From Dehalococcoidia bacterium (GTDB lineage Bacteria; Chloroflexota; Dehalococcoidia; Lucifugimonadales; UBA3495), in assembly GCA_034423195.1 (NCBI GenBank), contig DAOUIZ010000034.1, forward strand, positions 2,023-66,022: a DNA stretch of 64,000 nucleotides, read 5' to 3'. This document shows, piece after piece, positions 10,351 through 61,539 of the stretch. The first letter of the stretch is position 1, and each line of letters opens with the position of its first letter. A program made the position numbers and the translations under genes. Below the pieces are notes generated by a model, which worked only from the letters and a program-made list of their open reading frames with translations, did not search any database and was not told the DNA's origin.

Positions 10351-11136
10351 CTAGCCGACCTGCTCCCGGATGTCCTGCAGACGCTCCCGCAGGGACCGCA
10401 TCAGGACCGCGGAGGGGGGCGGAGCAACGTGGGTGTATCCCACGCCGAGTTCCTGAAGTTCTTTCGGGCCCATGGGCAGGGCGGCATGGTTCATGGGGAA
10501 CTGCATCTTGGCCTTTCCGATTCCCTTAATCTTGTCGGCCAGCTCCTTGATCCTGGCCCGGAGCTCCGGGCTGGAGGGGTCCCGGATGCCCATGTACTCG
10601 GAGAAGTCGGTGGGTCCGATGGAAACCAGGTCGACTCCCTCGAGGCCGGCGATGGCCTCAATGTCGGCGATGCCTTTCTCGTCCTCGGTCATCACCGAGA
10701 GCAGGATCTGTTCGTTGGACTGCTGCACGTGGTCGTCCCAGGAGACGGCGCCGAAGCGGGTAGCCCGGGTCCCGCCGGCGCCTCCCCGGTGGCCCAAAGG
10801 CCCGTACCGGACCGCTTCGACGGCCCGCTTCGCCCCCTCCAACCCGTCGACGTGGGGGACGATGATGCCCTCGGCCCCGGCGTCCAACAGGCGCAGGATC
10901 AGTTTCTCGTCGTTGTCCGGCACCCGGACGATGGAGGTGATGCCGACCAGGTCCGCCGCCCTAACCATCTCGGTGACGAGGGCGAGATCGAAGGTGGTGT
11001 GTTCCATGTCGATGAAGGCGGCGTCGTAGCCGGCCAGCCCGATGATTTCGACGACCTGGGGATCGGCGAACGTCACGTAGGTGCCCAGGGCGAGCTTGCC
11101 CTCGGACATCACTTTCTTGACCCGGTTCTCTCGCAT
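10351..11136 (-). CDS. HpcH/HpaI family aldolase
   Basis: DAAFIDMEHT metal/substrate motif and VRVPDND segment. Start placed at ATG 11136, preceded by AAGGAG. Confidence 0.85.
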   Translation of the reverse strand: MRENRVKKVMSEGKLALGTYVTFADPQVVEIIGLAGYDAAFIDMEHTTFDLALVTEMVRAADLVGITSIVRVPDNDEKLILRLLDAGAEGIIVPHVDGLEGAKRAVEAVRYGPLGHRGGAGGTRATRFGAVSWDDHVQQSNEQILLSVMTEDEKGIADIEAIAGLEGVDLVSIGPTDFSEYMGIRDPSSPELRARIKELADKIKGIGKAKMQFPMNHAALPMGPKELQELGVGYTHVAPPPSAVLMRSLRERLQDIREQVG

Positions 11137-11230
11137 CTTGCTTCTCCTTGAGACTATGGGCAACTCCGGCGCTACCGCGAGATATTATCCTACGCCGGGC
11201 GAGGGAGCGCCAATTGGGCCGGAGCACCTT

Positions 11231-11260
11231 TCCGGTGGCTGCCAGTCCGGTGGCTGCCAG
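11231..11260. repeat. Perfect tandem duplication, 15 nt x 2 (TCCGGTGGCTGCCAG)
   Basis: Read directly in the intergenic sequence. Confidence 0.95.
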
Positions 11261-11404
11261 CTACCCGTGGGGCCGGCCCGGGGCTGGACGTGACGGAAAA
11301 AAATGGTTTGTGGGATAAATGGGACATTTCGCGCGTTTTGAGCGTGAAACCCGGAGAAATCCCTTCCCAAGAGCGCCATTCAGGGGTTAAGACGTGACGC
11401 GAAA

Positions 11405-11463
11405 GGGACACGGATGGGACATGAATGGGACACGGTGAGACATTTTGAGACATTTTCGGGACA
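11405..11463 (+). repeat. Helically phased array of six G(G/A)GACA hexamers (candidate protein-binding array)
   Basis: Hexamers start at 11405, 11416, 11427, 11437, 11447 and 11458 (spacing 11, 11, 10, 10, 11). One extra copy at 11321. They lie in a 655-nt non-coding divergent region. Confidence 0.7.
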
Positions 11464-11791
11464 TTCCCGATGGAACAGGAAGGAACGAAAGGGTCGGGCC
11501 GCGTTCCCGAGTCCGGGCGAGACGGTCCGGCTGGAATTGGCGATTGGGATGCAGGGCGAGGGCAATCGCACCGGCGAAGGTTTTTCCATATACGGTAACG
11601 CTATACCGGACCGGCGCCGCCGTCAACGGGCAACTGTCACAAGGAGGTTGGACTGTTTGCTATCGTTCGGGGGCAGAGAGTAAAATCCGTTGCGATTCAA
11701 CGGCTGTCGGCAGGGTGGAGGAGTAGTCCATCCCCGATGCAAGCCTGGGTGGTCCAGCCGAAAGCGGACGAGGGAGACGGTCTTGAACGGA

Positions 11792-12973
11792 ATGCTGGAG
11801 GGGGTGAAAGTCCTGGACCTGAGCGAGGATGTCGCCGGTTCCTTCTGCGCCCGCCTGCTGGCCGATTACGGGGCCGATGTCCTCAAAGTAGAACCACCGG
11901 CGGGGGCGGCACTGCGCCGGTTGGGGCCCTTCTTCGAGGATGATCCCCACCCGGAAAAGAGCCTCTTCTTCCTGCTGGCGAACCTCAACAAGAAGGGCGC
12001 CACCCTGAACCTGGAGACCGTCACCGGGCAGAACATCGTCCGCCGCCTAGTGGAGCATGTCGACGTCATTGTGGAGACCTATAAACCCGGATACATTGCG
12101 TCGCTGGGCCTGGGTCACGACGACCTGGCGGAGCTGAACCCGGGCCTGGTCACCACGTCCATCACCCCCTTCGGACAGGACGGGCCCTACAGCGGTTACG
12201 AGGGCGGGGAAATCGTCGAATACGCCATGAGCATGATCATGAGCATCAGCGGCATCCAGGGGCGCGAGCCGCTGAAGCACGGCGGTTTCCAGGCGCAGTA
12301 CGAGGGGGGGCTGTTCGCGGCCGGGGCGACTTCCATGGCGCTGTTCGCCCAGTCGGTCACCGGGGTGGGCGAGCACGTCGATGTGTCGATTACCGAGTGC
12401 ATAGCATCCACCATGATGGCTACCCAGACAATCTACCCGTTCGTCGGAGGCGTCCAGGCGCGGCGGAGGGCCGAAGGCAACAATTTCGAGAACCCCATGC
12501 CCTGCAAGGACGGCTGGATTATCGTACAAGCCGGAGGGGGGGCGACCTGGGAAGACCTGGCGAATTTCTTCGAGACTCCCGAACTCCTGGAGCCCCGTTT
12601 TGCCAACCGGGCCGAGCGGGCCCGCAACGGCGCGGATATGGACCGCATCATCCTTGAATCCATCAAGGAGCGGGAGAAGTGGGAGCTTTTCCCCAAGGCC
12701 GCGGCGGCGCGGATGCTGTTCGGCATCGTGCAGACTCCCCTGGAACTGGTGGACTGCCCGCAGCTGGAGTCGCGGGGATTCTACCGGGAGGTGGAGCATC
12801 CGGTCATCGGAAACATCAAGGTGCCCGCGGAACTGTTCAAGCTGAGCGAGACCCCCTACCAGCTGAGGCGGGCAGCTCCGACGCTGGGCCAGCACAACCA
12901 GGAAATCTATGTTGAGGGACTGGGTTACAGCCAGGAGGAGTTCGTGCAGCTACGGCAGCTGAACATCATCTGA
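11792..12973 (+). CDS. Family III (CaiB/BaiF) CoA-transferase
   Basis: N-terminus MLEGVKVLDLSEDVAGSFCARLLADYGADVLKVEPP is the family signature. Start moved to ATG 11792. Confidence 0.85.
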   Translation: MLEGVKVLDLSEDVAGSFCARLLADYGADVLKVEPPAGAALRRLGPFFEDDPHPEKSLFFLLANLNKKGATLNLETVTGQNIVRRLVEHVDVIVETYKPGYIASLGLGHDDLAELNPGLVTTSITPFGQDGPYSGYEGGEIVEYAMSMIMSISGIQGREPLKHGGFQAQYEGGLFAAGATSMALFAQSVTGVGEHVDVSITECIASTMMATQTIYPFVGGVQARRRAEGNNFENPMPCKDGWIIVQAGGGATWEDLANFFETPELLEPRFANRAERARNGADMDRIILESIKEREKWELFPKAAAARMLFGIVQTPLELVDCPQLESRGFYREVEHPVIGNIKVPAELFKLSETPYQLRRAAPTLGQHNQEIYVEGLGYSQEEFVQLRQLNII

Positions 12974-28559: not shown

Positions 28560-29851
28560 CTCGGGTGCTTGCTGAGCATTATGAAGCCGCAGCTGTCCGG
28601 GGTGTTGCAGCCCGCCAGGGCAGTGTCGGCCCGGCCCGTCACCTGCCGCGGCCCTGCCGTCCCCCGAAGCTGCTCAAGGCTGTCCGAGAAGAGGCATGAC
28701 CGGGTGCGTCCCGTCCCGTTGTTTCCGCCGCTGGAAAGGAAGGGATGGGGGCCTTCGACCCGGATGTCCTCGGCGTAGAAGTCGTGGGCCTCGCCCCACT
28801 TGACGCCGTGCCACTGGAAGCCTTCGAGGAACTGCTGGGTGAAGGTGAGGTAGCCGTCGTATGGGTTGAATATATCAACATCGTCAGGCCCCAGCCCGGA
28901 ACCTTCCCACATCTTCCGGGCCAGGCTGGCGACCGCCTCCTGGTGTTCCTCCAGGGTTGCCATGGTGCTCCTGCCCCGGCCGTTGTTCTGGGCATGGTTG
29001 AGGACGTAGGCGGGCTTTTGCCGCAGGTCCCTGGCCCGCTCGGCGGTGGTGAATATGAAGGCGGCGCAGGTATTGACCGGCCGGTCACAGTCATAAATCA
29101 CCAGCGGCTCCTCGATCACCCGCCCGTTCAGGTAGTCCTCGCGGGTGAGCTGATAGGGCTCGTGGAGAGCGTAGTACCCCCAGGGAGTCATCAGGCCGTT
29201 CCGGCGCAGGTTCAGGCAGAGCGGGGCCAGGCCGTCGTGGGACTTGCCGTATTTCTGGCAGTACTGCAGGAAGACCACCAGGTTGTTGAACATGGCGCCG
29301 TTCTGATAGCCCCAGGGCAGGGAAAAGGCGCTGGCGCCGGGGGCCTCCTGGTTGAGGTTCTGGGGATTGTTGTGCCCGTACCGGCCTTCAAGATTGACCA
29401 TCGGGTACCACACCAGGGCGGTCTCGCATAGTCCGTCACCGACCGCCTGGGCGGCCAGGCCCATCATCGGGCCGATGTAGGGCGCGTCGGACTTGAGATA
29501 CTTGACATTCTTCAACCCCAGCTCCCGCTGTATCCAGTCGGCTGAGGTGTAGGTCAGGCCGTCTTCCGTGTCGTAGGGGGGGTCGAAATAGGGGCGGGGC
29601 GCCCAGGTCTGCTCGGCGCGGGTCTCCCGGCTGGTGATAAGCCCGTCAATGTCGTCCAGCGACAGGCCCGCGTCGGCAATCGCCTTCAGGCATGCCTCCT
29701 TGGTCAAGCCGCCGCAGCTCCGGTCCATGGTCACGCCGTCCCAGCGCCGGTCGATGTGAGACTGGCCCCAACCGACAACGGCGACCTTGCCCCGGTGCTC
29801 CCAGACTCCCATGCCTTCCCGGTTTCTCATCCAGCTTGTGTCGCTAACCAT
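28556..29851 (-). CDS. Thiolase-fold protein of the SCP-x/Ltp-like (non-canonical) type
   Basis: The length and C-terminal pattern (GGNNGTG...) are thiolase-like. No obvious VxxxC(S/A)(S/G) nucleophile motif. Adjacent to a DUF35 gene. Confidence 0.7.
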   Translation of the reverse strand: MVSDTSWMRNREGMGVWEHRGKVAVVGWGQSHIDRRWDGVTMDRSCGGLTKEACLKAIADAGLSLDDIDGLITSRETRAEQTWAPRPYFDPPYDTEDGLTYTSADWIQRELGLKNVKYLKSDAPYIGPMMGLAAQAVGDGLCETALVWYPMVNLEGRYGHNNPQNLNQEAPGASAFSLPWGYQNGAMFNNLVVFLQYCQKYGKSHDGLAPLCLNLRRNGLMTPWGYYALHEPYQLTREDYLNGRVIEEPLVIYDCDRPVNTCAAFIFTTAERARDLRQKPAYVLNHAQNNGRGRSTMATLEEHQEAVASLARKMWEGSGLGPDDVDIFNPYDGYLTFTQQFLEGFQWHGVKWGEAHDFYAEDIRVEGPHPFLSSGGNNGTGRTRSCLFSDSLEQLRGTAGPRQVTGRADTALAGCNTPDSCGFIMLSKHPS

Positions 29852-29954
29852 CTCAGCTCCCTCGTGCCCTCTGCGCTATTGGCCGTGTCCTGAGTTCCGT
29901 TCCCCCTCCGGGGCCGCTCACCTCCGGGGTCGTGTCCGGCTCACTGGGGGCGGG

Positions 29955-30383
29955 CTAGGTGACCACCTGCCACTCGTGGACCAGCTGGCCGTTGCTGGTT
30001 TCTTCAAATATCAGTTCCACCTGGGCTCCAACCGGCACCTCGCCCGGCGGGGTGCCCGGAAGGTTGGACAGAAAGTTGATGCCCGGGTCCTCGTCCAGGG
30101 TTATCACCGCGAAGTTGATGGGCTGCGCCGACCGGAACCCCCTGATGCGGGAGTCGCGGATCACCATGTAGACGTCGATATGGCCCTTGCCTTCGACCTC
30201 TTTCCATTCCAGGTTGTCGGCGGAGCCGCACTTGTTGCACCGCTGGGCGGGCGGATAGTGCAGCCTCGCGCAGGCGGTGCAGTTCTGCAGGACCAGCCGC
30301 CGCTCGTTGCAGGCATCCCAGAAGGGCTTGGTCAGTTCATTTGGAACCGGGGCGGGTCTCTCAAGTCCTGGAATGGTTGACAT
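29955..30383 (-). CDS. DUF35 Zn-ribbon/OB-fold acyl-CoA-associated protein
   Basis: PFWDACNERRLVLQNCTACARLHYPPAQRCNKCGS rubredoxin-like CxxC..CxxC motif plus an OB-fold tail. Start at ATG 30383, preceded by GGGAGGGGAG. Confidence 0.85.
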   Translation of the reverse strand: MSTIPGLERPAPVPNELTKPFWDACNERRLVLQNCTACARLHYPPAQRCNKCGSADNLEWKEVEGKGHIDVYMVIRDSRIRGFRSAQPINFAVITLDEDPGINFLSNLPGTPPGEVPVGAQVELIFEETSNGQLVHEWQVVT

Positions 30384-30547
30384 GGTTCTCCCCTCCCGTG
30401 GGCTCTGGCATACCGCGTTGGCATTTCCTGTGCAATCCAACGCGGATTATATGTAGAGGATTTTTGCAGGTCAAAGGTGCTTGCCGGCCCTGGCCGGATT
30501 CGGCCCTGCGCCCGCCGGAGTCGCGGGCCAATATCCGGGCCGGAATG

Positions 30548-30937
30548 CTAGTCCCCGGCCGTTTTCCCGTTGATCCACGGCTCGGCATGGCCGGCGTCCA
30601 TCAGGACGAAATGGAACCCGGCCTCCAGGGCAAACTGGCGGTCCAGCTCCGTATCGCCCACGTGGTAGTAATCCTCGGCGGGAAAACGGGACTTCACGGC
30701 CGGGAGGTCCTGCTTGGCCGAGACGAAGCTGACCTCGATGCCGTGCCGGTCCCAAATGGCCTGCTGCACCGGAAGCGGCCGGTCGGAGGAACTGCCGATG
30801 ATGCACCCATGCTCCCTGGCCTTCCTGACCATGCTCATGGTAATCGGCCCGGGAGGGTCTCCCGCTTCCAGGGTCCCGTCTATGTCGAAACTGACTAATA
30901 CTGGCAAGAACGGTCTCCCTTCCATGATTTGAGGCAC
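30548..30937 (-). CDS. Small HAD-superfamily hydrolase
   Basis: Motif I FDIDGTL and motif IV-like GDTELD. 129 aa. Confidence 0.65.
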   Translation of the reverse strand: MPQIMEGRPFLPVLVSFDIDGTLEAGDPPGPITMSMVRKAREHGCIIGSSSDRPLPVQQAIWDRHGIEVSFVSAKQDLPAVKSRFPAEDYYHVGDTELDRQFALEAGFHFVLMDAGHAEPWINGKTAGD

Positions 30938-30965
30938 GAATTTGACTCGTGTTGAGGGCGCCGGC

Positions 30966-33440
30966 CTACGGCTCTCCGCCGGCCGAAGGGTCCGCCCACT
31001 GGACGATTCCCCGCGCCCCCAGGTCCTCGATTTCCGCGTCGCCGTACCCGATTTCCCGCAGCAGGGGCCTGGTGTGCTGTCCGACCTGGATGGAGGTGCG
31101 GTAAAGCCCCGGGGTCAGGGAAAACTCGACCAGCCCGCCGTAACGCAGGTACTTGCCGACATACGGGTGCTCCACCTCAACGCTCAGGGCATTGGCCTTG
31201 GCGTGGGGATGTTCCGCGTAGAACTCTCCTTCCAGGGCTTCGTCGGCCTGGACGCAGCCGATGTCCGCCGCGATGAGCAGCTCTTCCCACTCGGCGGCGG
31301 TTCGGGCGGCGAAGATTGCCGCGATTTCGGCGATCAGGGCTTCGTCGTTGGCCTGCCGGGCCTCTCGGGTTGAGAAGCGGGGATCGGCCAGCAGTTCTTC
31401 CCGCTGCACGGTGCGGCAGAATGTTTCCCACTCGTCCTGGAACAGGCAGCCGAGGAACACCCAGCCCTCCCGGCAGCGGTAGAGACGGTACAGGGCATGG
31501 AGGCCATGCAGCTCTTCGTCGGGCATGGCGATGGGAGGTCGGTTGGCGTGGTCGTAATACTCGTCCGCATTGGTCCAGGCGTTGGCGTTGAGCATGGTGA
31601 CGTGGACGGGCTGGCCCCTGCCGGTGAGGTCCCGCGCCCGGAGGGCCAGGATGATACCCGTGGCAACCGCCGGCGAGGTGTTCTGGTCCGGCCCCCAGTT
31701 GGATTTCATAATCCAGCGGGTGGCCTCGACGGTCTCCTCAACATCCAGCTCCTGTTCGGGAGGCGGGGGCATGCCCCGGCCCATCTGCCGCATGGCGCCG
31801 CCCATGATGGCGCCGGGAATGGGATGGGCGCCGGGCCGGCGGGCGTGTTCCCCGTGTTCGCCATAGGTCCCCATCCAGACGTGGACCAGGCGGGGGTTGA
31901 GCTCCCGGCAGGTCTCCCAGTCAACGCCGAGACGCTCCGGGACGCCGAGGCGGAAGTTGTGCGACAGCACATCGGCCCTGGCGATGAGCCTGTGGACAAT
32001 CTCCCTGCCTTCCGGGGTCTGGAGGTCAACCTGGATCCCTTCCTTGCCGGCGTAGGTCCTTGGCTCGGCTATCGCCTGGGCGGTGGAGCGCCTGCCCTCA
32101 TCCAATCGCCGGTCGGTGGCGTCCAGCTTGATGACCCGCGCCCCCAGGTCTGCCAGAAGGGCGGCGGCGTAGGGCCCGGCCTGGATTGTCGCCAGGTCCA
32201 GGATGGTGACACCTGACAGGGGGTGGGCCGGCGCGTCAGATCCGGGGATGTCGGACAGGCCGCTGCCCTCTGCGGCTGCGGCAGGCGGCAGGCGTCCCAG
32301 CACTTCCGCGTTGTGCTGTCCCACGTCGGGGGCAGGGCCGCTGGGCTCCCCCGGGGTGTCCCTGAAATCCACCAGGGGGGCCAGGGTCCGCATCGGGCCC
32401 ACGCGGGGATCATTGACCGTTGCCACTGTGTTGTTGGCGGCCACCGCAGGATGGTCCATGGCCTGGACGCTGGTGCGGTACGGCTCGGCGGCGATGTTGC
32501 CGTCCTGGAGGTAAATCTCCATCCATTCGCTGGCGGTCTTCTCCAGCTGGCTCTTCAGTATCTCCCGCCGCAGGAGCTCCCGGTTCTCCAGGTCTATGGC
32601 GGGGACTCTGGCGAACCGGTCGTCCTCCAGCAGGTGCCCCAGCCCGATGGCCTGGAGATGCCCCTGGATGTGCGGGACCCTCTGGTTGGCGTGCTGCAGC
32701 CAGGTGCCCTCCCGGGTCCGCACCGGAACGTATCCCACCGAGGATAGGCCGCGGGCGCCGCCGGGCCTGCCGGGGAAGCGCTGCGGGTCCCGGCGCCGGA
32801 GCTGCATATTCACCAGTCCGCCGTCGCCGGCGTTGTTGTCATGGGGAGAGGCCAGGCTCTGGACGATGCTGGTCTGGACCCATTGCCCGCGCCCGCACTG
32901 GTCGCGCACACGGAGGGCGCCGATGATTCCCCGCACCGCGGCCTGGCTGGCGTGCCAGCTTCCGGTGTACACCGCCGAGTACACCGGGCCTTCCCGGTTG
33001 GGCTGTCCCTGCAGGTTTAGCATCCGGCCCGCCTTGGCCGCAACGACGCCCTCGTACCCCTTCACCCGCCGGAGCGGCCCCTCCTGCCCAAACCCGGTGA
33101 TGGAGCAGTAGACCAGCCCGGGGTAAAGTCCCGACAGGGCATCATACCCCAAGCCCCATTCGTCCATGTCCCCGGGACGGAAAGACTCGACCAGAACGTC
33201 GGCGTTGCCGGCCAGCCGGATGGCCTGCTCCCGGCCTTCCCCGGTGGCCAGGTCCAGCACGACGCCTTTCTTGCCCCGGTTCCATGAAATCCAGCCGGGC
33301 TGGAAGCGGAAGGGGTCTCCCCCGGGAGGTTCAACCTTGATCACATCGGCCCCGTAGTCGGCCATTACCAATGTGCAGATGGCCCCCGGCATCCCCAATG
33401 AGAAATCCAGAACGGTTAGGCCAGTACATGGTCCTGCCAC
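30966..33440 (-). CDS. Tandem-fused double family III (CaiB/BaiF) CoA-transferase, 824 aa
   Basis: Two complete family signatures: LTVLDFSLGMPGAICTLVMADYGADVIKVEPPGG (N-terminal half) and GVTILDLATIQAGPYAAALLADLGARVIKLD (C-terminal half). Confidence 0.85.
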   Translation of the reverse strand: MAGPCTGLTVLDFSLGMPGAICTLVMADYGADVIKVEPPGGDPFRFQPGWISWNRGKKGVVLDLATGEGREQAIRLAGNADVLVESFRPGDMDEWGLGYDALSGLYPGLVYCSITGFGQEGPLRRVKGYEGVVAAKAGRMLNLQGQPNREGPVYSAVYTGSWHASQAAVRGIIGALRVRDQCGRGQWVQTSIVQSLASPHDNNAGDGGLVNMQLRRRDPQRFPGRPGGARGLSSVGYVPVRTREGTWLQHANQRVPHIQGHLQAIGLGHLLEDDRFARVPAIDLENRELLRREILKSQLEKTASEWMEIYLQDGNIAAEPYRTSVQAMDHPAVAANNTVATVNDPRVGPMRTLAPLVDFRDTPGEPSGPAPDVGQHNAEVLGRLPPAAAAEGSGLSDIPGSDAPAHPLSGVTILDLATIQAGPYAAALLADLGARVIKLDATDRRLDEGRRSTAQAIAEPRTYAGKEGIQVDLQTPEGREIVHRLIARADVLSHNFRLGVPERLGVDWETCRELNPRLVHVWMGTYGEHGEHARRPGAHPIPGAIMGGAMRQMGRGMPPPPEQELDVEETVEATRWIMKSNWGPDQNTSPAVATGIILALRARDLTGRGQPVHVTMLNANAWTNADEYYDHANRPPIAMPDEELHGLHALYRLYRCREGWVFLGCLFQDEWETFCRTVQREELLADPRFSTREARQANDEALIAEIAAIFAARTAAEWEELLIAADIGCVQADEALEGEFYAEHPHAKANALSVEVEHPYVGKYLRYGGLVEFSLTPGLYRTSIQVGQHTRPLLREIGYGDAEIEDLGARGIVQWADPSAGGEP

Positions 33441-33868
33441 GGTTCACCTCTCCTGCCAGTTATCCGGGATCATGCTCGGGCAAGCATCCGGGCCGTTCCT
33501 CCGGCAGCCTGACCTTCTCCGGCGTTGGCGCCGCCTGGCTTGGGGAATGACGTTCATCCGGTTTCGCCGCCCTGTACCGGAAACCGTCAACGCCCGCCAA
33601 TGCGGGTAGTATACAACGCCCAAATTCAGGAATGGCTGCCGGAGCCCCCGCCCGGGCCGGGACGGGGAAAATAGCCCAACCTTCAAAAGTATCGCCAAAC
33701 AGGGTAAGATGGGTGGCGTTCAGACCCGCCCCCCGACCTGCTTCCATGACCGACCGGGGCAAGCTGGGCACAAACCAAAGGCCAGCCCTCCGGCAAGTCA
33801 CCGAAACACCCCGGGGAATCCTCGGAGTCTACCCGGCCGGCCCGCCTGCACGAGGATTTACCCCACCT

Positions 33869-35005
33869 ATGCCGGATTTCATCCCGGATTCCACCAACGT
33901 TGCCCCAACCCGCCCGACATCCCAACCAACAACTCCGGCCGGCCCGGTCGCAGACTTCGCCGAACTGCCCCGCCGCATTCGGGAAGCGGGGTTGATGGAG
34001 CGTCAGCGCGGCTACTACACCATCAAGATTGTATCCACGCTTGCCATGCTCGCCCTGAGCATCGCCCTCTTGCTGGTGGTGGACAATTTCTGGTTCCAGC
34101 TGGCCAACGCCGCATTCCTGGCTTTCGTGTTCGGACAGATAGGCTACATCGGCCACGATGCCGGGCACCTGGCGGTCTGCCGGTCGAACCGGGGAAACCG
34201 GCTGATCGGTTACGGCGTCTGCTTCCTGTTGAGCATGAGCCAGTCGTGGTGGCTCACCCAGCACAACCAGCACCACCGCACTCCCAACGACCTGGATGAC
34301 GACCCCCACACCCTGATGCCGGTGCTGGCCTTCTCCGAGGAAAAGGCCGGCAGCAAGCGGGGCGTGGTGCGGTGGCTGGTGGGCTATCAGGCCTTTTATT
34401 ACGTGCCGATGCTGATGCTCGAAGGTCTGGGGATCCGGCTGGCGAGCCTCCAGTTCCTGATCGGGGAGAGGAAGGCGAGGCAATACCTCCCCGACTTCAG
34501 CCTGATGGCGCTGCACTTCGTCCTGTATTTCGGCCTGCTCTTCTACGCGCTGACTCCCTGGCAGGTGCTGGCCTTTGCCCTGGTCCACCAGGGACTGTTC
34601 GGGCTGTACTACGGGCTGGTGTTCGCTCCCAATCACAAGGGAATGCTGATTCTGGACAAGGACAAGCCCCTGGACTTCGTGCGCACCCAGGTGCTCACCA
34701 CCCGCAACGTCAAGCCCAACTTCCTGGTGGACCTGATGTACGGCGGGCTGAATTACCAGATAGAGCACCACCTGTTCACGATGATGCCAAGGAAGAACCT
34801 GGGAAAGGCCAGGCCCATCGTCAAGGAGTTCTGCCGGCAGCAGGGCATTCCCTACTACGAGACCGGAACGTTCCAGTCCTACCGGGAGATTCTCAGCTAC
34901 ATGCACCAGGTCTCGTCCATTCTCAGAACCGGGTCGAAACCACCGGCCAAGATGGAAGGCGGCAGTCCCGCAGCCGTTAATTCCGGTGCAGCCGCCACCG
35001 GGTAG
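33869..35005 (+). CDS. Membrane fatty-acid desaturase, front-end-like (third His box QxxHH), no cytochrome b5 domain
   Basis: His boxes HDAGH, HNQHH and QIEHH, with 4 or more TM segments. Start moved to ATG 33869. Confidence 0.8.
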   Translation: MPDFIPDSTNVAPTRPTSQPTTPAGPVADFAELPRRIREAGLMERQRGYYTIKIVSTLAMLALSIALLLVVDNFWFQLANAAFLAFVFGQIGYIGHDAGHLAVCRSNRGNRLIGYGVCFLLSMSQSWWLTQHNQHHRTPNDLDDDPHTLMPVLAFSEEKAGSKRGVVRWLVGYQAFYYVPMLMLEGLGIRLASLQFLIGERKARQYLPDFSLMALHFVLYFGLLFYALTPWQVLAFALVHQGLFGLYYGLVFAPNHKGMLILDKDKPLDFVRTQVLTTRNVKPNFLVDLMYGGLNYQIEHHLFTMMPRKNLGKARPIVKEFCRQQGIPYYETGTFQSYREILSYMHQVSSILRTGSKPPAKMEGGSPAAVNSGAAATG

Positions 35006-35107
35006 GACTGCTTGGCAATCACGCCGGAGAGGCCGCTTGGCCAAACCGCCTGAAGAGGCCCCCGGGGATATTGCCCCGGCGGCTCCAGACATGACCGTGG
35101 GGTGTAG

Positions 35108-35791
35108 ATGAAGCCCTGGCTGCTGCTCGGCCGAGCCCAAACCCCCGGGGGAGGAGCGGAGCTCCTTCTGTACCAGCGGGACTCCGAGTTCTCGCTTAAA
35201 GCGGACAACCAGGAACTCATGAACAGCCGGGTCTACGGTTCGGAGGAAGCGATGGCCAGGCTGGGCTGCCAGCGCCTGGGAAAGCGTCCGGGGGCCCGCG
35301 TTCTGATCGGGGGCCTGGGCATGGGCTACTCGGTGAGGACGGCGCTGGACATCCTCGGACAGGATGCCCGGGTCGTGGTTGCGGAGCTGGTTCCGGCCGT
35401 GGCGGAATGGAACCGGGGAGTCCTCGCCGGCCTGGCGGATCATCCTCTTGACGACCCCCGGACCGAACTCCGTGAAGCAGACGTCGCCGAGGTGATAAGG
35501 GAAGCCCAGGGTGGCTACGACGCCATCCTCCTTGACGTTGACAATGGGGCGGAGGCGATTGTCCGGGAGGGCAACAACTGGCTATACAGCCCGCCGGGGC
35601 TGGCCGCTATCCATGGGGCCCTGCGTCGCAACGGAGTATTGGCGGTGTGGTCCGCCGCTCCCCAACCGGCGTTCGTCAAACGGCTGAGCCGTGCCGGCTT
35701 CGGCGTGGAGGAAGTAAAGGTGCGGGCGCGGGGCGGAAGCAGCCGCAAGGGCGGAGCCCATCACGTCGTCTGGGTAGCAACGCGTGGTTGA
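35108..35791 (+). CDS. Spermidine synthase-like class I methyltransferase-fold protein
   Basis: VLIGGLGMGYSVRTAL glycine-rich loop, ILLDVDNG acidic motif, family-typical length. Confidence 0.6.
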   Translation: MKPWLLLGRAQTPGGGAELLLYQRDSEFSLKADNQELMNSRVYGSEEAMARLGCQRLGKRPGARVLIGGLGMGYSVRTALDILGQDARVVVAELVPAVAEWNRGVLAGLADHPLDDPRTELREADVAEVIREAQGGYDAILLDVDNGAEAIVREGNNWLYSPPGLAAIHGALRRNGVLAVWSAAPQPAFVKRLSRAGFGVEEVKVRARGGSSRKGGAHHVVWVATRG

Positions 35792-56367: not shown

Positions 56368-56611
56368 GGCAACAGTCCGTCAGTTTTCTCCGGTGTGACT
56401 ACCGGGGCGGGGTAACATGCTCTTTTCAGGAGGGTTTCCGAGGCTTGGTCCTCGCCCGGGATTCAGGTGCTCGTTCACCCCGGTTTCCTTCACTTGCCAG
56501 CGAGTTGCCAAGGACAGCATGGAGCGGGGCCGGAATCCGGGTCTGGTATCCCTGGCAACAGCTCCCGGGCCGGCGGCGCGGGAGGGCCGCCGGTTGCGCG
56601 ACAGGTCTGGA

Positions 56612-56950
56612 TCAACCGGAGAAGCTGGCAATGGCATCGGGCTGGGAACCCCAGACCGGGATGATCTTGTCGAACCCGCTGATTTCAAACACCTCGCGGA
56701 TGGGGTCGGAAAGGGAACAAACGGCGAGTTCGGTACTTTGACGCTGAAGGGCCTTGGTGGTCATGAGAATGACCCGGAGCCCGGCGCTGCTGATGTAAGA
56801 AAGATCCGCCAGGTCCAGTACCACGCCCCTGTCGTCGGTGCTGATAGCCTCGCTGAGGTCTCCCTGGAACTCCTGAGCGTTGGAGCCGTCGAGACGCCCC
56901 TGGGGCTTGGCGATCAGTATCCCATTTTCCCGAACGATTCCTAGTTCCAT
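56612..56950 (-). CDS. STAS-domain protein (anti-sigma-factor antagonist-like), copy 2
   Basis: LSYISSAGLRVILM loop identical in core to copy 1. Start moved to ATG 56950, preceded by AAGGAG. Confidence 0.8.
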   Translation of the reverse strand: MELGIVRENGILIAKPQGRLDGSNAQEFQGDLSEAISTDDRGVVLDLADLSYISSAGLRVILMTTKALQRQSTELAVCSLSDPIREVFEISGFDKIIPVWGSQPDAIASFSG

Positions 56951-57032
56951 TACCAATCTCCTTAGGAGCGTCTTTAGCGCAAGTTGAAGGGAAGCGGGGA
57001 GCCCCGGCAAAGGTGAAGGCGGATAGCGGAAC

Positions 57033-57092
57033 GGGCCTCCCGATAACTCTACTATGGGGTTTGACTTGGTTTTAGTGGGGCCTCCCGATAAC
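57033..57092. repeat. Perfect 15-nt direct repeat GGGCCTCCCGATAAC x 2 (57033-57047, 57078-57092) upstream of STAS copy 2
   Basis: Read directly. 45-nt period, 83-142 nt upstream of the STAS2 start. Confidence 0.9.
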
Positions 57093-57688
57093 GTAACGGC
57101 CACACCTAGAGTTAGATTATACCCTACAATCCATGGTTGAGAGCAATATATAAGATAGACAGTTACAGCCAGGCATTCTCCCTACCGAATGCAGGGGACA
57201 TAGTCTTTCCGGTGGTCCACATCTCGTTGAAGCCTGAATGAGGGTTCCTGGGCTAGACGCGTCCATGTTGAGACTGATGAACGGGGAAAGGTGAGACTGG
57301 ACTGGGAAGACGCAGAGCCATGCTACACGGACGCAATCTACAAGTCAACGACTTGCCTGAGAGAAGCGCGTAATTCATATCCTAAGGTGGAGCTCGTTAT
57401 TTGGAGAGAATTACCGGGACTTCTTCGTGGGATGATCCTCTTGATCCGTAAATCTAGATCATCCTATAGAACTCGCATTCAGGCTACCCAAGGATTCGGG
57501 TGCAGGTCACCTCACCTGAGGCAGCGAACGCGAACGGGACTTGCAGGAACTACTCTGGGGCTTTCGATTTTCGGGGAATCGCCGCATAATTCCCGTGCAG
57601 GGGGCTCTACCCCTCACTGCATCCGGGCGCTGCGTTTGCATGAGTGAAAAGTATGCCCGTCAACTTTGGGGGAGTTTCGGACTTAGCC

Positions 57689-59524
57689 ATGCTCAGGCTC
57701 CTCAGCGTCACCAACTTCGCCACAATAGAGCAGCTCGAGGTTGAGTTGGGACCCGGGTTCAGCGTGCTGACCGGTGAGACGGGGGCTGGCAAGTCGATCA
57801 TCGTGGATGCGCTGAGCCTTCTGCTCGGAGGACGGGCCGATCTCGACACGGTACGTTCCGGTGCACGCCAGTCCAGGGTAGAAGGCATCTTCCTGCTTAG
57901 CCTGGACATCTCTCGGAAGATCAAAGCTGCCCTGAATGACTATGGAATTGACGTTGACGAACAGGAGTTAATTCTCGCCCGGGAAATTAACCTGGACGGC
58001 CGCAACACCTGCCGGGTGAACGGTCGAATCGTACCTCTCAGGGTATTGAGCACGCTGGCCCAACACCTGGCGGACATCCATGGACAAAACCAGCATCTGT
58101 CCCTTCTCCGCGCACGGGAGCACATGGACATCCTGGACAGGTATGCCGGGTTGTTGCGACTCCGCTCCGAGGTGGCAGAGGCGGTCCACCAGCTAACGCG
58201 AGTGCGCCAGGAACTGGACCGCCTGCAGAAGGATGGCGCAGAGCGTGCTCGACAAGTGGATTTTCTGAGATATCAAGTGGATGAGATCAGCTCCGCAAAT
58301 CTGCGTCCCGGTGAAGATGACGACCTGGCGCTGGAGAGAGACCGGGTGGCCAACGCAGAGCGAATCATCACACTGTCAGACCACGCCTACGGAGCGTTAT
58401 ATGATAGCTTTGACCGCCACGATTCGGTGATAGACCTGATAGGGCAGGTGTCTGCAGACCTTTCCCAATTGGGGAGACTGGACCCCACATTGAGCCAGAA
58501 CCTTGAGTCCGTAGATGCCATCATGTCCCAGGTGGAAGAATTGGCGCGCGCACTGCGCAGCTATCGTGACGGCATCGAATACAGCCCGGAACGTCTTCAG
58601 GAGATTGAGGGCCGGTTGGACTTGATCAACAGTCTAAAAAGGAAGTACGGCGGTTCCATCGGAGAAATCCTGGCCTTCGGCGAGACGGCCTCCCAGGATC
58701 TGCAAAATCTGGATCACACCGAAGAGCGTGTGGAGGGATTGGAGTCACGGGAGACGGACCTCGAAAGGGAGGTCGGCATCCTTGCGGGGCAACTCTCCGA
58801 AGCCCGCCAACAGGCCGCCACGCGTTTGGCTGAAGCGATAGAAGAGGAGGTCGCCGGGCTGGCTTTGGGACACGCCCAGGTGTTAGTGGACATTCGTCAA
58901 GCAGAGTCGAAGGATGGTGTGCCGGTTGGGACCGTGGGTACGGTACCGGATTCAACACCCGGTTCGGGTGGGCAATCTGAAAGGTGGCTCGCGTTCAACG
59001 GGACGGGCATAGACTTAGTGGAATTCTTGATCTCGCTGAACCCGGGCGAACCGCCACGGCCGCTTTCCAGGATCGCTTCTGGAGGAGAAACGTCCAGGCT
59101 GATGCTTGCCATTAAGACCATCCTGTCGACGGCCGACGAGATACCGATGCTCGTGTTCGACGAAATCGATGCGGGGATAGGTGGTCGAGTCGGGAGTGTC
59201 CTGGGTCAGAAACTGTGGGGCCTGTCCGAGACCCATCAGGTGCTATGCGTAACTCACCTCCCCCAAATAGCCTCCTACGCAGACCACCACAGCAAGGTTG
59301 CGAAACTTGCCTCAGATGGAAGGACCGTGACATCGGTGGAGGACCTCAATGGTGAGACCAGGGTGAGGGAACTGAGCCAGATGCTGGGCTCAGATAGCGG
59401 CGCAACCCGCACCAACGCCTTGGAGATGCTAAAACAGGCGGAAAGCTGGAAGGAGAGCAAGAGGGCCTCCCCCGTCCAGGAAACTCTTCGGTGGTCTCAG
59501 GAGACCGTACAGGATCCGGGTTAG
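57689..59524 (+). CDS. recN: DNA repair protein RecN
   Basis: MLRLLSVTNFATIEQLEV..LTGETGAGKS Walker A, long coiled coil, SGGETSRLMLAIK signature, MLVFDEIDAGIGG Walker B. Start moved to ATG 57689. Confidence 0.9.
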   Translation: MLRLLSVTNFATIEQLEVELGPGFSVLTGETGAGKSIIVDALSLLLGGRADLDTVRSGARQSRVEGIFLLSLDISRKIKAALNDYGIDVDEQELILAREINLDGRNTCRVNGRIVPLRVLSTLAQHLADIHGQNQHLSLLRAREHMDILDRYAGLLRLRSEVAEAVHQLTRVRQELDRLQKDGAERARQVDFLRYQVDEISSANLRPGEDDDLALERDRVANAERIITLSDHAYGALYDSFDRHDSVIDLIGQVSADLSQLGRLDPTLSQNLESVDAIMSQVEELARALRSYRDGIEYSPERLQEIEGRLDLINSLKRKYGGSIGEILAFGETASQDLQNLDHTEERVEGLESRETDLEREVGILAGQLSEARQQAATRLAEAIEEEVAGLALGHAQVLVDIRQAESKDGVPVGTVGTVPDSTPGSGGQSERWLAFNGTGIDLVEFLISLNPGEPPRPLSRIASGGETSRLMLAIKTILSTADEIPMLVFDEIDAGIGGRVGSVLGQKLWGLSETHQVLCVTHLPQIASYADHHSKVAKLASDGRTVTSVEDLNGETRVRELSQMLGSDSGATRTNALEMLKQAESWKESKRASPVQETLRWSQETVQDPG

Positions 59525-59883
59525 ATCTCGAATCTCTCGCACGCTTACAGGGTGGACTGTTTCATTCAGTTTCCGGCACCCAATCAGCATCGCAGAAAGT
59601 TGGGGGCCCGTGAAATCCTTGAGGGGACTGCTGGAGGGGAGAATTTCAGCCGTTCGAACCTCGGATATGTCAGTACACAAAGAACGGCAAAAAGGGAGTT
59701 GGTTAAACGAGACCTCGGCAAGTCCAAAACCGGCCGGGTTCTCACTGCTCGAACGGTGGAACCGGCGGGAGAGTGAAGGACAGGGGCCGGGATCCCTAGA
59801 AGCAACCCCGGTGTAGTGGTTTATACCAGCCGATACCAGCCCCATTAACCGGCCATTGAAGCACAATATCGTTGATATTGAAG

Positions 59884-59972
59884 CGGAGGGAGTGGGATTC
59901 GAACCCACGATCCCGGTTTCCCAGGATAAGCGCTTAGCAGGCGCCCGCACTAGACCACTATGCGATCCCTCC
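59884..59972 (-). tRNA. tRNA-Ser (GCU), long variable arm, CCA not encoded
   Basis: Acceptor GGAGGGA/TCCCTCC, anticodon loop CTGCTAA, T-arm GTGGG-TTCGAAT-CCCAC, discriminator G. Confidence 0.9.
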
Positions 59973-60258
59973 AAGGCTCGGGAGCCCAATATATCAGAAC
60001 CGCCTCAACCCGACAATAAACCAAAGCCCTAATCCACCGAAAAGATGTCTGTGGAGGCGGGCTGGGACGACAACAGTGCTTCCGGCTTCGGGGATGACGG
60101 TCTTTGAAACAGAATGCCGACTCGGAACGAGGGGCGCCCAAGAGATGCTACCGCACGAGAAGCCTGACCGTATCCATGGCGCCTTCAACGGCCGCAGGTC
60201 ATTAATCAGATACGGGAAAACGTGCTCACCGAGGCCAACATCTGCGGATTGGTGAAGC

Positions 60259-60334
60259 TGGTGGAGATAGGGGGGCTCGAACCCCCAACCTCGGCATTGC
60301 GAACGCCGCGCTCTCCCAGTTGAGCTATATCCCC
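60259..60334 (-). tRNA. tRNA-Ala (CGC), CCA encoded
   Basis: Acceptor GGGGATA/TATCTCC with the G3:U70 identity pair, anticodon loop TTCGCAA, T-arm GGGGG-TTCGAGC-CCCCC. Confidence 0.9.
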
Positions 60335-60515
60335 ACTTGCGGTGCGGAACCGGAGGTTTCCGGTTTTAGGGGCCGGACCCGCCGGCCGACTGGTCATCCA
60401 TCCCAGAGGGCTGCCGCTAATACCCTGGATGGGCGTGACTTGTCCAAAAGGGCTGCGCGGCAGAAGGATGGTACAGGAATGGTAAGTCCCGCCGACGAAT
60501 GGTGTCAAGGCGTGG

Positions 60516-61205
60516 TCAAGAGGACGGGCGGGGCGGCAGGACTCCGGTCAGCCAGGGAACGAGGTCGTTGATGACGGCCGGGGGGATTTCGTGTCCCATG
60601 GGGTATTCGTGGTAGCTAAGGGCGTAGCCTTCCTCTTCGAGGAAATCGCGGGCGGCCTGGGCAGTGTCCATGGAGATCATGGGGTCGTGGTCGCCGTGGG
60701 CGATGAAGATGGGCTGTTCCCGGTTGTCGGGGAGCCTGGCCTTGAGGATATCCCGGTCGGGGAGGGTGGCGCTGAGGGCAGCGAGGCCGGCGAAGACGTG
60801 GGGACGGTCCAAGCCGCAGCGGTAGGTCATTCCGCCGCCCTGGGAGAAACCCATTAGTACGGCATTTCCCGGGGCTGTGCCGAACTGGGCGAAGATGTCG
60901 TCGAAGTAGGCGGCAACCTGTTCCTCGGCTTTCTGGAAGTCCTCGGGCTGGGCCTGCCCCCGGGGAGGGTGCCAGCCGTATCCAACCATGCCGAGGCCGA
61001 CGTTGAAGGGAATGGGCGCGTTGGGGAGGCTGTAAACATAACCTTCCCGGTGGATGGAGGGGGCCAGTCCGGCGAGGTCGCGCATGTTGGCGCCGAAACC
61101 GTGGAGCAGAATGACCAGCGGGTAGGCGGCGTCTTCCCGATAGTCGTCGGGATAGATATTCAGGTAGGCCAGGGACTGGCCCTGGTGCTGTTCAGCTTTC
61201 ATCAA
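60516..61205 (-). CDS. Phospholipase/carboxylesterase family alpha/beta hydrolase
   Basis: LVILLHGFGAN, nucleophile elbow GFSQGG, late HG..D and H motifs (IAHGDHDPM, MGHEI). Confidence 0.8.
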   Translation of the reverse strand: MMKAEQHQGQSLAYLNIYPDDYREDAAYPLVILLHGFGANMRDLAGLAPSIHREGYVYSLPNAPIPFNVGLGMVGYGWHPPRGQAQPEDFQKAEEQVAAYFDDIFAQFGTAPGNAVLMGFSQGGGMTYRCGLDRPHVFAGLAALSATLPDRDILKARLPDNREQPIFIAHGDHDPMISMDTAQAARDFLEEEGYALSYHEYPMGHEIPPAVINDLVPWLTGVLPPRPSS

Positions 61206-61539
61206 AGCCCCTTTTGGCGGGAATGCAGAGTCATCCTAACACGAGAGGGCCAGAAACGCCGGTGGTCCTGATGGGAAGAAAAAATCTGCCCTATTCTGCC
61301 TCATTTTGTCCCATTCCCAGAGGTGTGGAGAGGGCTGGACTCCCGAATTGGGGCTCATTCCGTTCCGTTTTGCGCTATGGAGCCGGGATGGGCACCGAAG
61401 GGGAAGGCAACGCCGGGCCGGAAGGTCGTGCGGACAGAATCCATGGGTCCATAGTAGTGAGGCGGCTGCGGGGTTGGCAAGGGGGAACTGTCAGCAATCC
61501 GGGGCGAGGACGGGAGAAACGGCCGAGTTTTTGCACTTT

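Follow-up and report, generated by a model that had tools for sequence, protein, structure and literature searches.

A phased repeat array between divergent catabolic genes of a Dehalococcoidia bacterium, read as a putative docking site in a dispersed control region of TerS type

In SPP1, the pac region overlaps gene 1 at its promoters, its RBS and the 5' part of its coding region (PMC6316719), and a reference cited in that paper carries a title according to which the terminase represses its own synthesis. The HTHs of a TerS ring are set about one turn of DNA apart, and the DNA is believed to be wound around the ring (PMC4737164). The window analysed here, a stretch of 64,000 nucleotides from a contig of a Dehalococcoidia bacterium, contains a phased repeat array belonging to a family with a comparable layout. 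As in the case of SPP1/SF6 pac and G1P, an HTH protein of TerS type is encoded behind, or overlapping, its own multi-repeat region, which includes a promoter and the 5' end of the gene (PMC6316719). Unlike in SPP1/SF6, each genome has three paralogous genes, which are chromosomal and do not lie beside TerL; short, sequence-specific cores make up the repeats and appear to obey a recognition code; and the control region has been copied about 70 times, all three array classes included, in front of ordinary host genes.

A second point of reference are the putative mobile promoters and the Correia and ERIC elements, in which, as here, homologous upstream sequence precedes non-homologous genes and varies in presence between close relatives (PMC3575422). 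The present elements differ in having an identifiable source gene and a phased array matched to the product of that gene. Short direct repeats on one helix face, at 10-11 bp, are also shared with Pho boxes and OmpR arrays, iterons and R1 parC, but the present array is wrongly placed relative to the regulated promoter, precedes functionally unrelated genes, occurs many times on the chromosome and has no gene for a response regulator, Rep or ParR associated with it. Packaging by RcGTA takes place without a specific site. In common with RcGTA-type agents and domesticated phage sets, TerL, portal, putative protease and capsid genes are scattered in the chromosome, and a promoter module of the same type heads TerL and the protease/capsid genes; unlike in RcGTA, there are TerS-like paralogues, presumably sequence-specific, together with dispersed arrays that would be their cognate sites.

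The divergent spacer and its modules

The array is located between an aldolase gene (hpcH) and a CoA-transferase gene. The features of the locus are as follows (window coordinates).

10351-11136, minus strand: HpcH/HpaI-family aldolase gene (Pfam PF03328, E=1.4e-24), the gene at which the element points
11184-11213, minus strand: proximal promoter of the aldolase gene itself, TTGGCG-N18-GATAAT, predicted by consensus scan, outside the element
11231-11260, no strand assigned: 15-nt perfect tandem repeat (TCCGGTGGCTGCCAG twice), particular to this genome, outside the element
11296-11352, minus strand: module 2, the gene-proximal end of the element, aligned in 12 full-length copies
11394-11463, minus strand: array with six GRGACA cores on the plus strand, which on the minus strand read AAAATGTCYC, and a seventh, degenerate core
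11467-11593, minus strand: variable promoter-array spacer, with a paralogue identity of 0.29, which is background
11598-11639, minus strand: promoter module TGACAG-N7-TTGACG-N17-TAGCGT, sigma-70-like by sequence, with TGACAG at 11639-11634, the -35 TTGACG at 11626-11621, a 17-nt spacer and the -10 TAGCGT at 11603-11598
11657-11686, plus strand: the CoA-transferase gene's own promoter, TTGCTA-N18-TAAAAT, predicted by consensus scan, outside the element and conserved in all eight genomes of the genus
11792-12973, plus strand: family III CoA-transferase gene (Pfam PF02515, E=2.7e-90), the divergent neighbour, toward which the element does not read

An earlier sequence-only reading had described the spacer as free of credible ORFs, with a drop in GC content, and both observations hold. 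The GC content dips to 0.515 at 11300-11499, compared with 0.60-0.72 around it, and the spacer ORFs (87-93 aa) have a GC3 of 0.59-0.62 versus 0.82-0.88 in the flanking genes, from which it follows that the spacer is without a credible gene. A small peptide gene within the array was considered and rejected, since ORFs with a GC3 of about 0.6 are open there merely because the repeat is devoid of stop codons. The six same-strand hexamers, GGGACA or GAGACA on the plus strand, start at 11405, 11416, 11427, 11437, 11447 and 11458, i.e., at steps of 11, 11, 10, 10 and 11 bp, and span 11405-11463; together with a further plus-strand GGGACA at 11321-11326 they lie exactly where that reading had placed them. 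GTGACG at 11394-11399, in phase with the array, is a degenerate seventh unit and corresponds to a good GGGACA in the relative G005. In the window as a whole GRGACA is not enriched (72 matches versus 82.6 expected); at that density, about 5.6e-4 for each position and strand, the Poisson chance of six copies within 59 bp is about 2e-12 per interval of this length.

Within an element of about 345 nt (approximately 11296-11640), which is to be read on the minus strand, the array is the module in the middle. In this orientation, the promoter comes first; the variable spacer follows, then the AAAATGTCYC units, of which there are six to seven, and after them a TTTCACGCTCAAAA box, the AAATGTCCC unit and the A-tract. 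A plus-strand reading was dropped, as no consistent downstream gene was found for it and the opposite orientation resolved the matter. Transcription would be predicted to start near 11591; in a strict scan for the E. coli-type consensus, the module, with its -10 of TAGCGT, does not pass. Inside the variable spacer a weak terminator-like hairpin is found at 11494-11510. Module 2 consists, on the minus strand, of the TTTCACGCTCAAAA box (11336-11349), a AAATGTCCC unit, a degenerate unit and the terminal A-tract, a T-run on the minus strand at about 11298-11306, where element copies end.

The element is situated between two flanking promoters, which are both conserved with or without it, and is directional toward hpcH only; the aldolase gene is the first co-directional gene and starts 477 nt past the promoter module. 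The CoA-transferase orthologues are 84-97% identical, with the same divergent arrangement in 8/8 genomes. At the aldolase promoter, whose region is 69% invariant among the four closest genomes, a ATTATCCTAC block is present in seven of the eight genomes, including three of the four element-less ones, with G003 deviating. The tandem repeat at 11231-11260 and the repeated words GACGTGACG(C)GAAA and ATRAATGGGACA, to which attention had been drawn earlier, do exist in the spacer; the three orthologous copies compared have kept neither the tandem repeat nor the first GACGTGACG word, and the stretch 11221-11289 is just 23% invariant among orthologues.

If the element promoter fires, the array would come to lie at about +125 to +190 of a long 5' leader, presenting UGUCYC every 10-11 nt, and an RNA-level role has to be weighed, for instance in the loading of Rho or in the attachment of an RNA-binding protein. 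The transcribed strand is rich in C and poor in G (GC skew of +0.27 to +0.28 on the plus strand), and the array is largely unpaired in the predicted fold. Against this, searches of the spacer with Rfam covariance models, at gathering as well as permissive thresholds, returned no match above E=1 quality, the fold stability of the putative leader is not significant (z=-1.5), the period of 10-11 bp is that of the DNA helix, and the class-specific cores co-vary with a DNA-binding helix, as described below. An RNA element is therefore considered very improbable.

Dispersal within the genome and variation among relatives

The array at hpcH is a member of a family. The element class has 22-23 copies in the genome, 12 of which align across the full length of about 350 nt. 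Arrays of the GRGACA type (at least three units at 9-12 bp spacing) number 18 genome-wide versus none in a reversed-sequence control, and the promoter module has 50 genome matches versus two in controls. Array classes differing in their cores, three in all, together amount to about 70 arrays or copies. The sequence-only reading had named as points against it absence of the array from syntenic loci of close relatives and lack of the motif elsewhere; the former applies to some relatives, whereas the motif array is strongly recurrent throughout the genome. Between copies, the promoter, the array and module 2 retain an identity of 0.59-0.65, with the variable spacer at 0.29; the mean pairwise identity is 0.59 for module 2 versus 0.30 in the flanks, and 0.65 for the array versus 0.29 in the adjacent spacer.

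The copies show a clear orientation bias: 39 of 44 promoter modules are co-directional with the next gene, and in tandem-gene contexts, the ratio is 19 versus 3 (p=8.6e-4). Gene-less copies always contain the promoter. The genes downstream of the copies are functionally unrelated and diverse; going by their N-terminal sequences, we take them by eye to include ffh, gatB, thrC, proC and thiG. The distance between promoter and array ranges from about 95 to 190 nt among copies, which argues against a precise promoter-occlusion operator.

From these data it can be judged how far a locus-specific operator for a response regulator of the OmpR/PhoB/GlnR type, or an iteron or centromere, would explain the array. 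Direct repeats at 10-11 bp spacing are common to all of these, and TGTCYC-AAAA-TGTCYC has what we take to be a superficial likeness to a Pho box. The OmpR/PhoB architecture, which had been suggested for the array, fits neither in position nor in the coherence of the regulon: about 22 dispersed copies stand before functionally unrelated genes, half of the genus lacks the array in this spacer, and the array, instead of being placed at a -35, follows the element's own promoter and precedes the hpcH -35 by about 190 nt. The parallel drawn with iterons and ParR-type centromeres is to be abandoned as well, given the many chromosomal copies and the want of adjoining rep or par genes, the neighbours being the aldolase and the CoA-transferase. 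This group of explanations is hardly credible. Of the proposal that a cooperative binding array controls the two divergent operons, a phased multi-site docking array remains the best reading; it would not be a private operator, with some 22 copies, absence from four of eight genomes and a direction toward hpcH alone.

As to its insertion status, the element is present in the hpcH/CoA-transferase spacer of four of eight congeners and represents an insertion. Upstream of thiG, G000 and G007 have a copy where G004 and G005 have a clean empty site; at other loci the empty sites are those of G007 or G004. At the thiG site, comparison of filled and empty states revealed neither terminal inverted repeats nor a target-site duplication, and the element is thus not MITE-like. 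Since both hpcH and thiG retain promoters of their own, the cassette is regarded as an add-on. Among the four orthologous copies, the invariant fraction is 0.76 for the promoter, the best-kept stretch of the whole divergent spacer, 0.67 for the array and 0.71 for module 2, versus 0.52 and 0.23 elsewhere; within the array, the cores are not significantly better kept than the positions between them (27/36 versus 17/30 invariant, p=0.13), a point against the docking reading.

It is conceivable that the TerS-like gene has had its 5' region spread by a non-transposase route as a drifting repeat, with the array a relic of no present host function and copies tolerated only where an outward promoter is harmless. 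The occupancy of the window locus in only 4/8 genomes and the clean empty sites at thiG and elsewhere would agree with drift, as would the class of putative mobile promoters (PMC3575422), homologous upstream sequence before non-homologous genes being variable between close relatives here too; counter-selection against antisense promoters could by itself yield the orientation bias. G007 provides a further point, for it keeps eight class-A arrays, the hpcH locus included, while its positional orthologue of the HTH gene described below is only 46% identical, with an SRST helix and ACACA-type units of its own; arrays can evidently persist without an obvious cognate protein. On the other hand, the retention of promoter, array and module 2 amid spacers decayed to background is hard to obtain without selection on the modules, the orthologous copies repeat this pattern, and array classes track recognition-helix residues. 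Drift without function is, on balance, unlikely, though it deserves serious consideration.

TerS-like proteins as candidate partners of the arrays

The sequence-only reading had found no gene for a cognate binding protein adjacent to the array. This is true locally, and a candidate exists on another contig, where a master copy of the element directly precedes the gene of a 143-aa HTH protein (C15:30362-30790), the start codon being about 25 nt past the A-tract. A stretch of 32 nt at the promoter-proximal end of the window array is identical to C15:30941-30972 in this master copy. Two paralogues of the HTH protein, on contigs C23 and C46, are each encoded behind an array of their own, different class. 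A TerS-like gene next to repeats is found at the master copy and at both paralogues, and the element in the window is best read as the 5' control region of the TerS-like HTH gene, copied to another place without the gene itself.

By profile comparison, the wider protein family is homologous to TerS and the class-A member weakly so. The PHROGs family phrog_2538 ("terminase small subunit") is matched by 63 of 66 family members; the class-A protein itself gives a weak match to the TerS profile (E 2e-3 to 3e-5), the strong ones coming from paralogues and the wider family. A PDB profile search returned Sf6 gp1 (E about 3e-4) and PaP3 TerS, and in an AF2 model (pLDDT 83) the predicted fold is an HTH plus a long helical hairpin, with 2ao9 as the best Foldseek match (probability 1.0, E=3e-3). 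For the HTH proteins, NCBIfam and PADLOC returned only matches of a generic kind, at the level of the HTH; partner proteins of about 95 aa had no match in Pfam, PHROGs, NCBIfam or PADLOC. When a genome collection was scanned with a narrow alignment of the protein, eight loci were obtained, three of them new, with the promoter module present and no obvious arrays.

The residues of the recognition helix co-vary with the repeat cores over about 15 lineages: xRRT is paired with TGnCYC, xRST with ..ACA, NRNT with TGnAGC, and HRAT with GCGACA. Within the genus, class-A arrays number 15 in G004 and 15 in G005, eight in G007, three in G002 and none in G001, G003 and G006; the best identity of the class-A protein is 75% in G004, 81% in G005, 46% in G007 and 40% in G002, and G001, G003 and G006 have only distant paralogues.

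With a probability of roughly 55%, the array would serve for docking of the class-A TerS-like protein, which would gate read-through from a portable, phage-type promoter. Being one of about 22 dispersed copies, it is probably a docking site of that protein and not a private switch of two operons. In this scenario, the HTH protein encoded on C15 would form a ring of TerS type with its HTH motifs one helical turn apart; the ring would bind or wrap the phased cores, by analogy with SPP1/SF6 TerS at pac with repression of its own promoter; docking would gate read-through from the element promoter into the HpcH-aldolase operon, and some 20 other operons with the same cassette would be controlled likewise. 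Occupancy of the cores by the protein, activity of the promoter and the sign of any effect on expression are inferred.

If this holds, a phage packaging module (TerS, pac-like repeats and promoter) would have become a portable control cassette rewiring dozens of ordinary metabolic genes in a group of bacteria that is uncultured and of ecological importance. Paralogous ring-forming HTH proteins with matched cores would then offer a tractable system for the reading of DNA by small terminases, a question open for pac phages. Dispersed repeats, mobile promoters and a possible GTA-like system would be connected in Dehalococcoidia in a concrete way that can be tested. If it does not hold, the array is still a member of a lineage-specific repeat family and not a locus-specific switch.

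Phage head genes and a second element

The genome also encodes head and packaging proteins of phage type. On contig C61, a TerL with an N-terminal zinc finger and HTH (C61:56671-58590; phrog_2, E=3.3e-37), a portal (PF04860, 1.7e-68) and an HK97-type capsid protein (PF05065) are found, along with an ORF which we take, by eye, to be a putative prohead protease. No TerS-like gene adjoins them, and a separate zinc-ribbon ORF lies upstream of TerL. The Pfam models Terminase_2, Terminase_6N, TerL_ATPase and TerL_nuclease were all negative across the genome; as TerL was found among the ORFs upstream of the portal and was confirmed with PHROGs, these negatives are considered failures of sensitivity. 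A promoter module, TGACAG-N7-TTGACA, heads both the TerL gene and the protease/capsid block, so that one type of module is common to TerS-like, TerL, portal and capsid genes and to the dispersed elements.

These genes lend some substance to the view that the array is a pac-like site of packaging initiation, at which the TerS-like protein would dock and recruit TerL, with a cut nearby and headful packaging of chromosomal DNA into GTA-like particles; the approximately 70 arrays of three classes would then be packaging entry points along the chromosome. The TerS likeness of the protein family, an arrangement of array, promoter and gene 5' end that copies SPP1 pac, the set of TerL, portal, putative prohead protease and HK97-type capsid, and the shared promoter module would all fit. 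However, none of the three TerS-like genes adjoins TerL, which has its own zinc finger/HTH and the zinc-ribbon ORF upstream; gene-less copies invariably include the promoter and have a strong tendency to face the same way as the genes downstream, neither of which a pac site needs; and the orientation of the elements is not biased with respect to local GC skew (19 versus 26, p=0.37). Packaging initiation is accordingly judged quite unlikely, and docking with gated read-through is retained as the preferred reading. A wider and decidedly speculative proposal, to which we give little credence, is that an abundant marine/sponge lineage of Dehalococcoidia has domesticated small terminases as a small family of ring proteins, each with a recognition code and a phased array of its own, and has seeded about 70 of the matching cassettes; since the cassettes, TerL and the capsid block share a promoter type, the arrays could on this view be either entry points for GTA-like packaging or a phage-derived global regulon switched on along with it.

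At approximately 61279-61494 on the minus strand, the window contains a further element, whose repeats are of a different class. The recurrence of the word AATGGGACA near 61300, noted earlier in connection with the array at hpcH, is confirmed; the word belongs to this other-class element, which has three units, AATGGGACA, AATGAGGCA and AATAGGGCA, and a promoter module of its own.

Architecture and dispersal of the array-bearing element

Between the HpcH/HpaI aldolase gene (minus strand) and the two family III CoA-transferase genes (plus strand), GGGACA or GAGACA hexamers start on the plus strand at 11405, 11416, 11427, 11437, 11447 and 11458, with a further GRGACA copy at 11321, just as the sequence-only reading had placed them. 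The 15-nt tandem repeat it had described (11231-11260), the duplicated flanking words and the drop in GC content, with a low point of 0.515 over the array, are present as well; the tandem repeat and the first GACGTGACG word of the spacer occur only in the source genome among the four orthologous copies compared. ORFs of the spacer have a GC3 of about 0.6 versus 0.82-0.88 in the flanking genes. Since GRGACA is not enriched over the whole window (72 matches versus 82.6 expected), six same-strand copies within 59 bp are far beyond chance.

A genome-wide search for such phased arrays, which the sequence-only reading had suggested, revealed that they are recurrent. The source genome (3.27 Mb, 76 contigs, 63.8% GC) contains 18 arrays of at least three units spaced 9-12 bp, while the reversed-sequence control contains none. 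By motif scan and nhmmer, the array of the window (class A) was found with its flanks at 22-23 loci, 12 of which are alignable across approximately 350 nt. Two other array classes (B and C), one of the GGACA/GTCC type with inverted arms and one of the GCnnCATTT type, keep the 10-11-bp period and differ in their cores. All classes terminate in a common 22-nt module, which on the opposite strand reads as a sigma-70-like promoter, TGACAG-N7-TTG(A/C)CA-N17/18-TAnnnT (50 matches in the genome versus 2 in composition-matched controls). The next gene is co-directional with this module in 39 of the 44 modules that could be scored, at a median distance of about 410 nt, and within tandem-gene contexts the bias amounts to 19 versus 3 (p=8.6e-4). 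Therefore, the element of the window is taken to run on the minus strand, toward the aldolase gene.

Features of the element and its neighbourhood
11657-11686, plus: CoA-transferase gene's own promoter, TTGCTA-N18-TAAAAT, outside the element
11639-11634, minus: TGACAG of the promoter module
11626-11621, minus: -35 region, TTGACG
11603-11598, minus: -10 region, TAGCGT
between the -10 region and the array, minus: variable spacer
11463-11394, minus: array, six AAAATGTCYC units and one degenerate unit
11352-11296, minus: module 2, comprising TTTCACGCTCAAAA box, AAATGTCCC unit and terminal A-tract
11213-11184, minus: aldolase gene's own promoter, TTGGCG-N18-GATAAT, outside the element
11136, minus: start of the aldolase gene

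Identity between paralogous copies amounts to 0.65 in the promoter, 0.65 in the array and 0.59 in module 2; the spacer, at 0.29, does not exceed the unrelated flanks (0.30). Between promoter and array, a weak terminator-like hairpin (11494-11510, minus strand; TCGGGAACGCGGCCCGA, then CCCTTTCGTT) could attenuate read-through or be noise.

The window holds a second family member of a different array class (61279-61494, minus strand), which accounts for the AATGGGACA word that the sequence-only reading had located near 61300.

Features of the second element
61494-61488, minus: CTGACAG
61480-61475, minus: -35 region, TTGCCA
61456-61451, minus: -10 region, TACTAT
61315-61286, minus: three units, AATGGGACA/AATGAGGCA/AATAGGGCA, then a T-run

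About 80 nt past it starts a 229-amino acid gene (61202), whose N-terminal sequence suggests an alpha/beta-hydrolase. Other lineage-specific repeat families are found at several loci (e.g., the G001 and G002 spacers, L004 and L005; C46:10400-10900; C34:~109400), among them a palindromic unit GGGGTTTGGGGGAT(G/T)CATCCCCCAAACCCC, tandem CGTCGTTCCTGCGGAGGCAGGAACCC units, and GGCACCAnCATGgTGGTG arrays that follow some of the class-C elements.

Insertion status among relatives

Throughout the eight genomes of the genus, the close relatives being deposited as Dehalococcoidia MAGs, the aldolase and CoA-transferase genes lie side by side in divergent orientation. The element is an insertion in their spacer. 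Conservation of the array at this locus, raised as a check by the sequence-only reading, holds for the four closest genomes (the source genome, G004, G005 and G007) and not beyond them: in G001, G003 and G006 the spacer is without the element, and in G002 (L005, G002:C1:4684900-4687700) it carries a class-B-type element with GGACA/TGTCC arrays around CACGCTC. The G002 element was acquired independently at this site and, being oppositely oriented, would point at the CoA-transferase gene. The CoA-transferase promoter is kept in eight of eight genomes and the aldolase promoter block in seven, including three of the four without the element. The earlier proposal of an operator serving two divergent operons is not borne out, because the array is one of 22-23 dispersed loci, points at the aldolase gene only, and leaves both neighbours their own promoters; a locus-specific operator, an iteron or a centromere is most improbable.

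Invariant positions among the four orthologous copies make up 0.76 of the promoter, 0.67 of the array and 0.71 of module 2, compared with 0.52 of the spacer and 0.23 of the region past the element (11221-11289). For the orthologous copies of this single locus, the difference between core and inter-core conservation is without significance (p=0.13). A tolerated, drifting repeat is rather unlikely.

Other copies are likewise indels between close relatives. The class-A copy upstream of thiG (C66:~65550-66400, L026-L028) is present in the source genome and G007 and cleanly absent from G004 and G005; it sits between the terminator of the upstream gene and thiG's own promoter and putative TPP riboswitch. 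Comparison of filled and empty sites revealed neither target duplication nor inverted ends for this copy.

The source gene and an apparent recognition code

One class-A copy, on contig C15, leads directly into a small HTH gene (C15:30362-30790), which encodes 143 amino acids from the ATG after the A-tract; gene callers predict 189 amino acids, with a start inside the array. By tblastn, two paralogues were found in the genome, one directly behind a class-B array (C23), the other directly behind a class-C array (C46). Behind both paralogues lies a gene of about 95 amino acids (C23:90329-90616; C46:11415-11705), a partner that the class-A gene lacks; the two partner genes are paralogous (30% identity) and have no match in Pfam, PHROGs, NCBIfam or PADLOC.

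Pfam assigns only generic HTH domains to the protein. Searched with a profile, 1.8 billion representative proteins yielded about 4100 related clusters; 63 of 66 diverse members hit PHROG 2538 "terminase small subunit", and many hit other small-terminase (TerS) PHROGs. The class-C paralogue scores 5e-9. Against PDB sequences, the profile found Shigella phage Sf6 gp1 (E about 3e-4 to 1e-3, ranked after spurious HEAT-repeat matches) and Pseudomonas phage PaP3 TerS (0.014). The AlphaFold model (mean pLDDT 83; residues 41-150 >95, first 40 of low confidence) shows an HTH with a long helical hairpin behind it; Foldseek matches it best to 2ao9 (probability 1.0, E=3e-3), a Bacillus cereus prophage protein with nine chains in the solved structure. 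In TerS rings, HTH motifs lie about one DNA turn apart, and the rings presumably wrap some 100 bp of DNA (PMC4737164), which provides a geometric rationale for docking of a TerS-like protein on the array. In phage SPP1, the promoters of gene 1, the ribosome-binding site and the 5' coding region all overlap with pac (PMC6316719), and the terminase is said to repress its own synthesis, according to the title of a reference cited therein.

Most homologues fetched across the order share one layout, i.e., promoter module, CCGCCACTGAGGC leader, three units, A-tract and gene, the units being AAATG plus 4-5 variable bases, 10-11 bp apart; in three homologues at greater distance the promoter module is retained, and obvious arrays were not found there. 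The variable bases follow the two residues flanking the invariant Arg of the recognition helix.

Recognition helices and unit cores
xRRT: TGnCYC cores (five lineages, including class A)
xRST: ..ACA cores (five lineages)
NRNT: TGnAGC cores
HRAT: GCGACA cores

Class-A array counts parallel the class-A protein across genomes.

Class-A arrays and class-A protein in the relatives
G004: 15 arrays; orthologue, 75% identity
G005: 15 arrays; orthologue, 81% identity
G007: 8 arrays; homologue, 46% identity
G002: 3 arrays; homologue, 40% identity
G001, G003, G006: 0 arrays; distant paralogues only

One caveat is the positional orthologue in G007 (L010, G007:C2:1314300-1315600; 46% identical, same divergent neighbour gene), whose recognition helix is SRST and whose units are of the ACACA type. 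Specificity seems to have switched here, which would have orphaned the eight class-A arrays of that genome, leaving them without an obvious partner. That the window array is a copy of the control region of the TerS-like gene is almost certain. Beside this correspondence of helix and unit, action of the array at the RNA level is very unlikely.

Phage-derived genes and the proposed role of the array

On contig C61, phage-derived genes form two detached blocks, each headed by a TGACAG-N7-TTGACA promoter module.

Phage-derived genes on C61
block 56500-60737: large terminase (TerL) with N-terminal zinc-finger and HTH (phrog_2, 3.3e-37)
same block, about 800 nt further downstream: portal gene (PF04860, 1.7e-68)
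block 28960-35422, about 30 kb from the TerL block: putative prohead protease ORF (read by eye)
same block, after the protease ORF: HK97-type capsid gene and four further ORFs

The large terminase escapes the standard Pfam TerL models; upstream of it lies a 65-amino acid CxxC...CxxC ORF. Because the same promoter module heads these blocks, the dispersed cassettes are probably co-expressed with the phage-derived gene set, which keeps alive a role of the array as a pac-like entry site for packaging. That role is unlikely.

Preferred is a scenario in which the class-A TerS-like protein would dock on the phased array, and docking would gate transcription that starts at the promoter of the element and reads through into the hpcH operon. 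With protein binding, promoter activity and direction of effect all inferred, its probability is put at roughly 0.55.

A full-text literature search retrieved no paper in which small terminases and SAR202 are named together. Among published concepts, TerS-pac recognition and "putative mobile promoters" (PMC3575422) come nearest. Interest lies mainly in the apparent recognition code and in the seeding, across the genome, of a control cassette derived from a phage.

The recA promoter (C35:~41984) shares with the elements the TGACAGTTGCCCG motif ahead of the -35 region. Between its -35 and -10 regions lies a palindrome, CGAACAC-N8-GTGTTCG, possibly an SOS-type operator; GAAC-N4-GT(G/A)C-like boxes occupy the equivalent place in more distant TerS-like genes (G019, G022).
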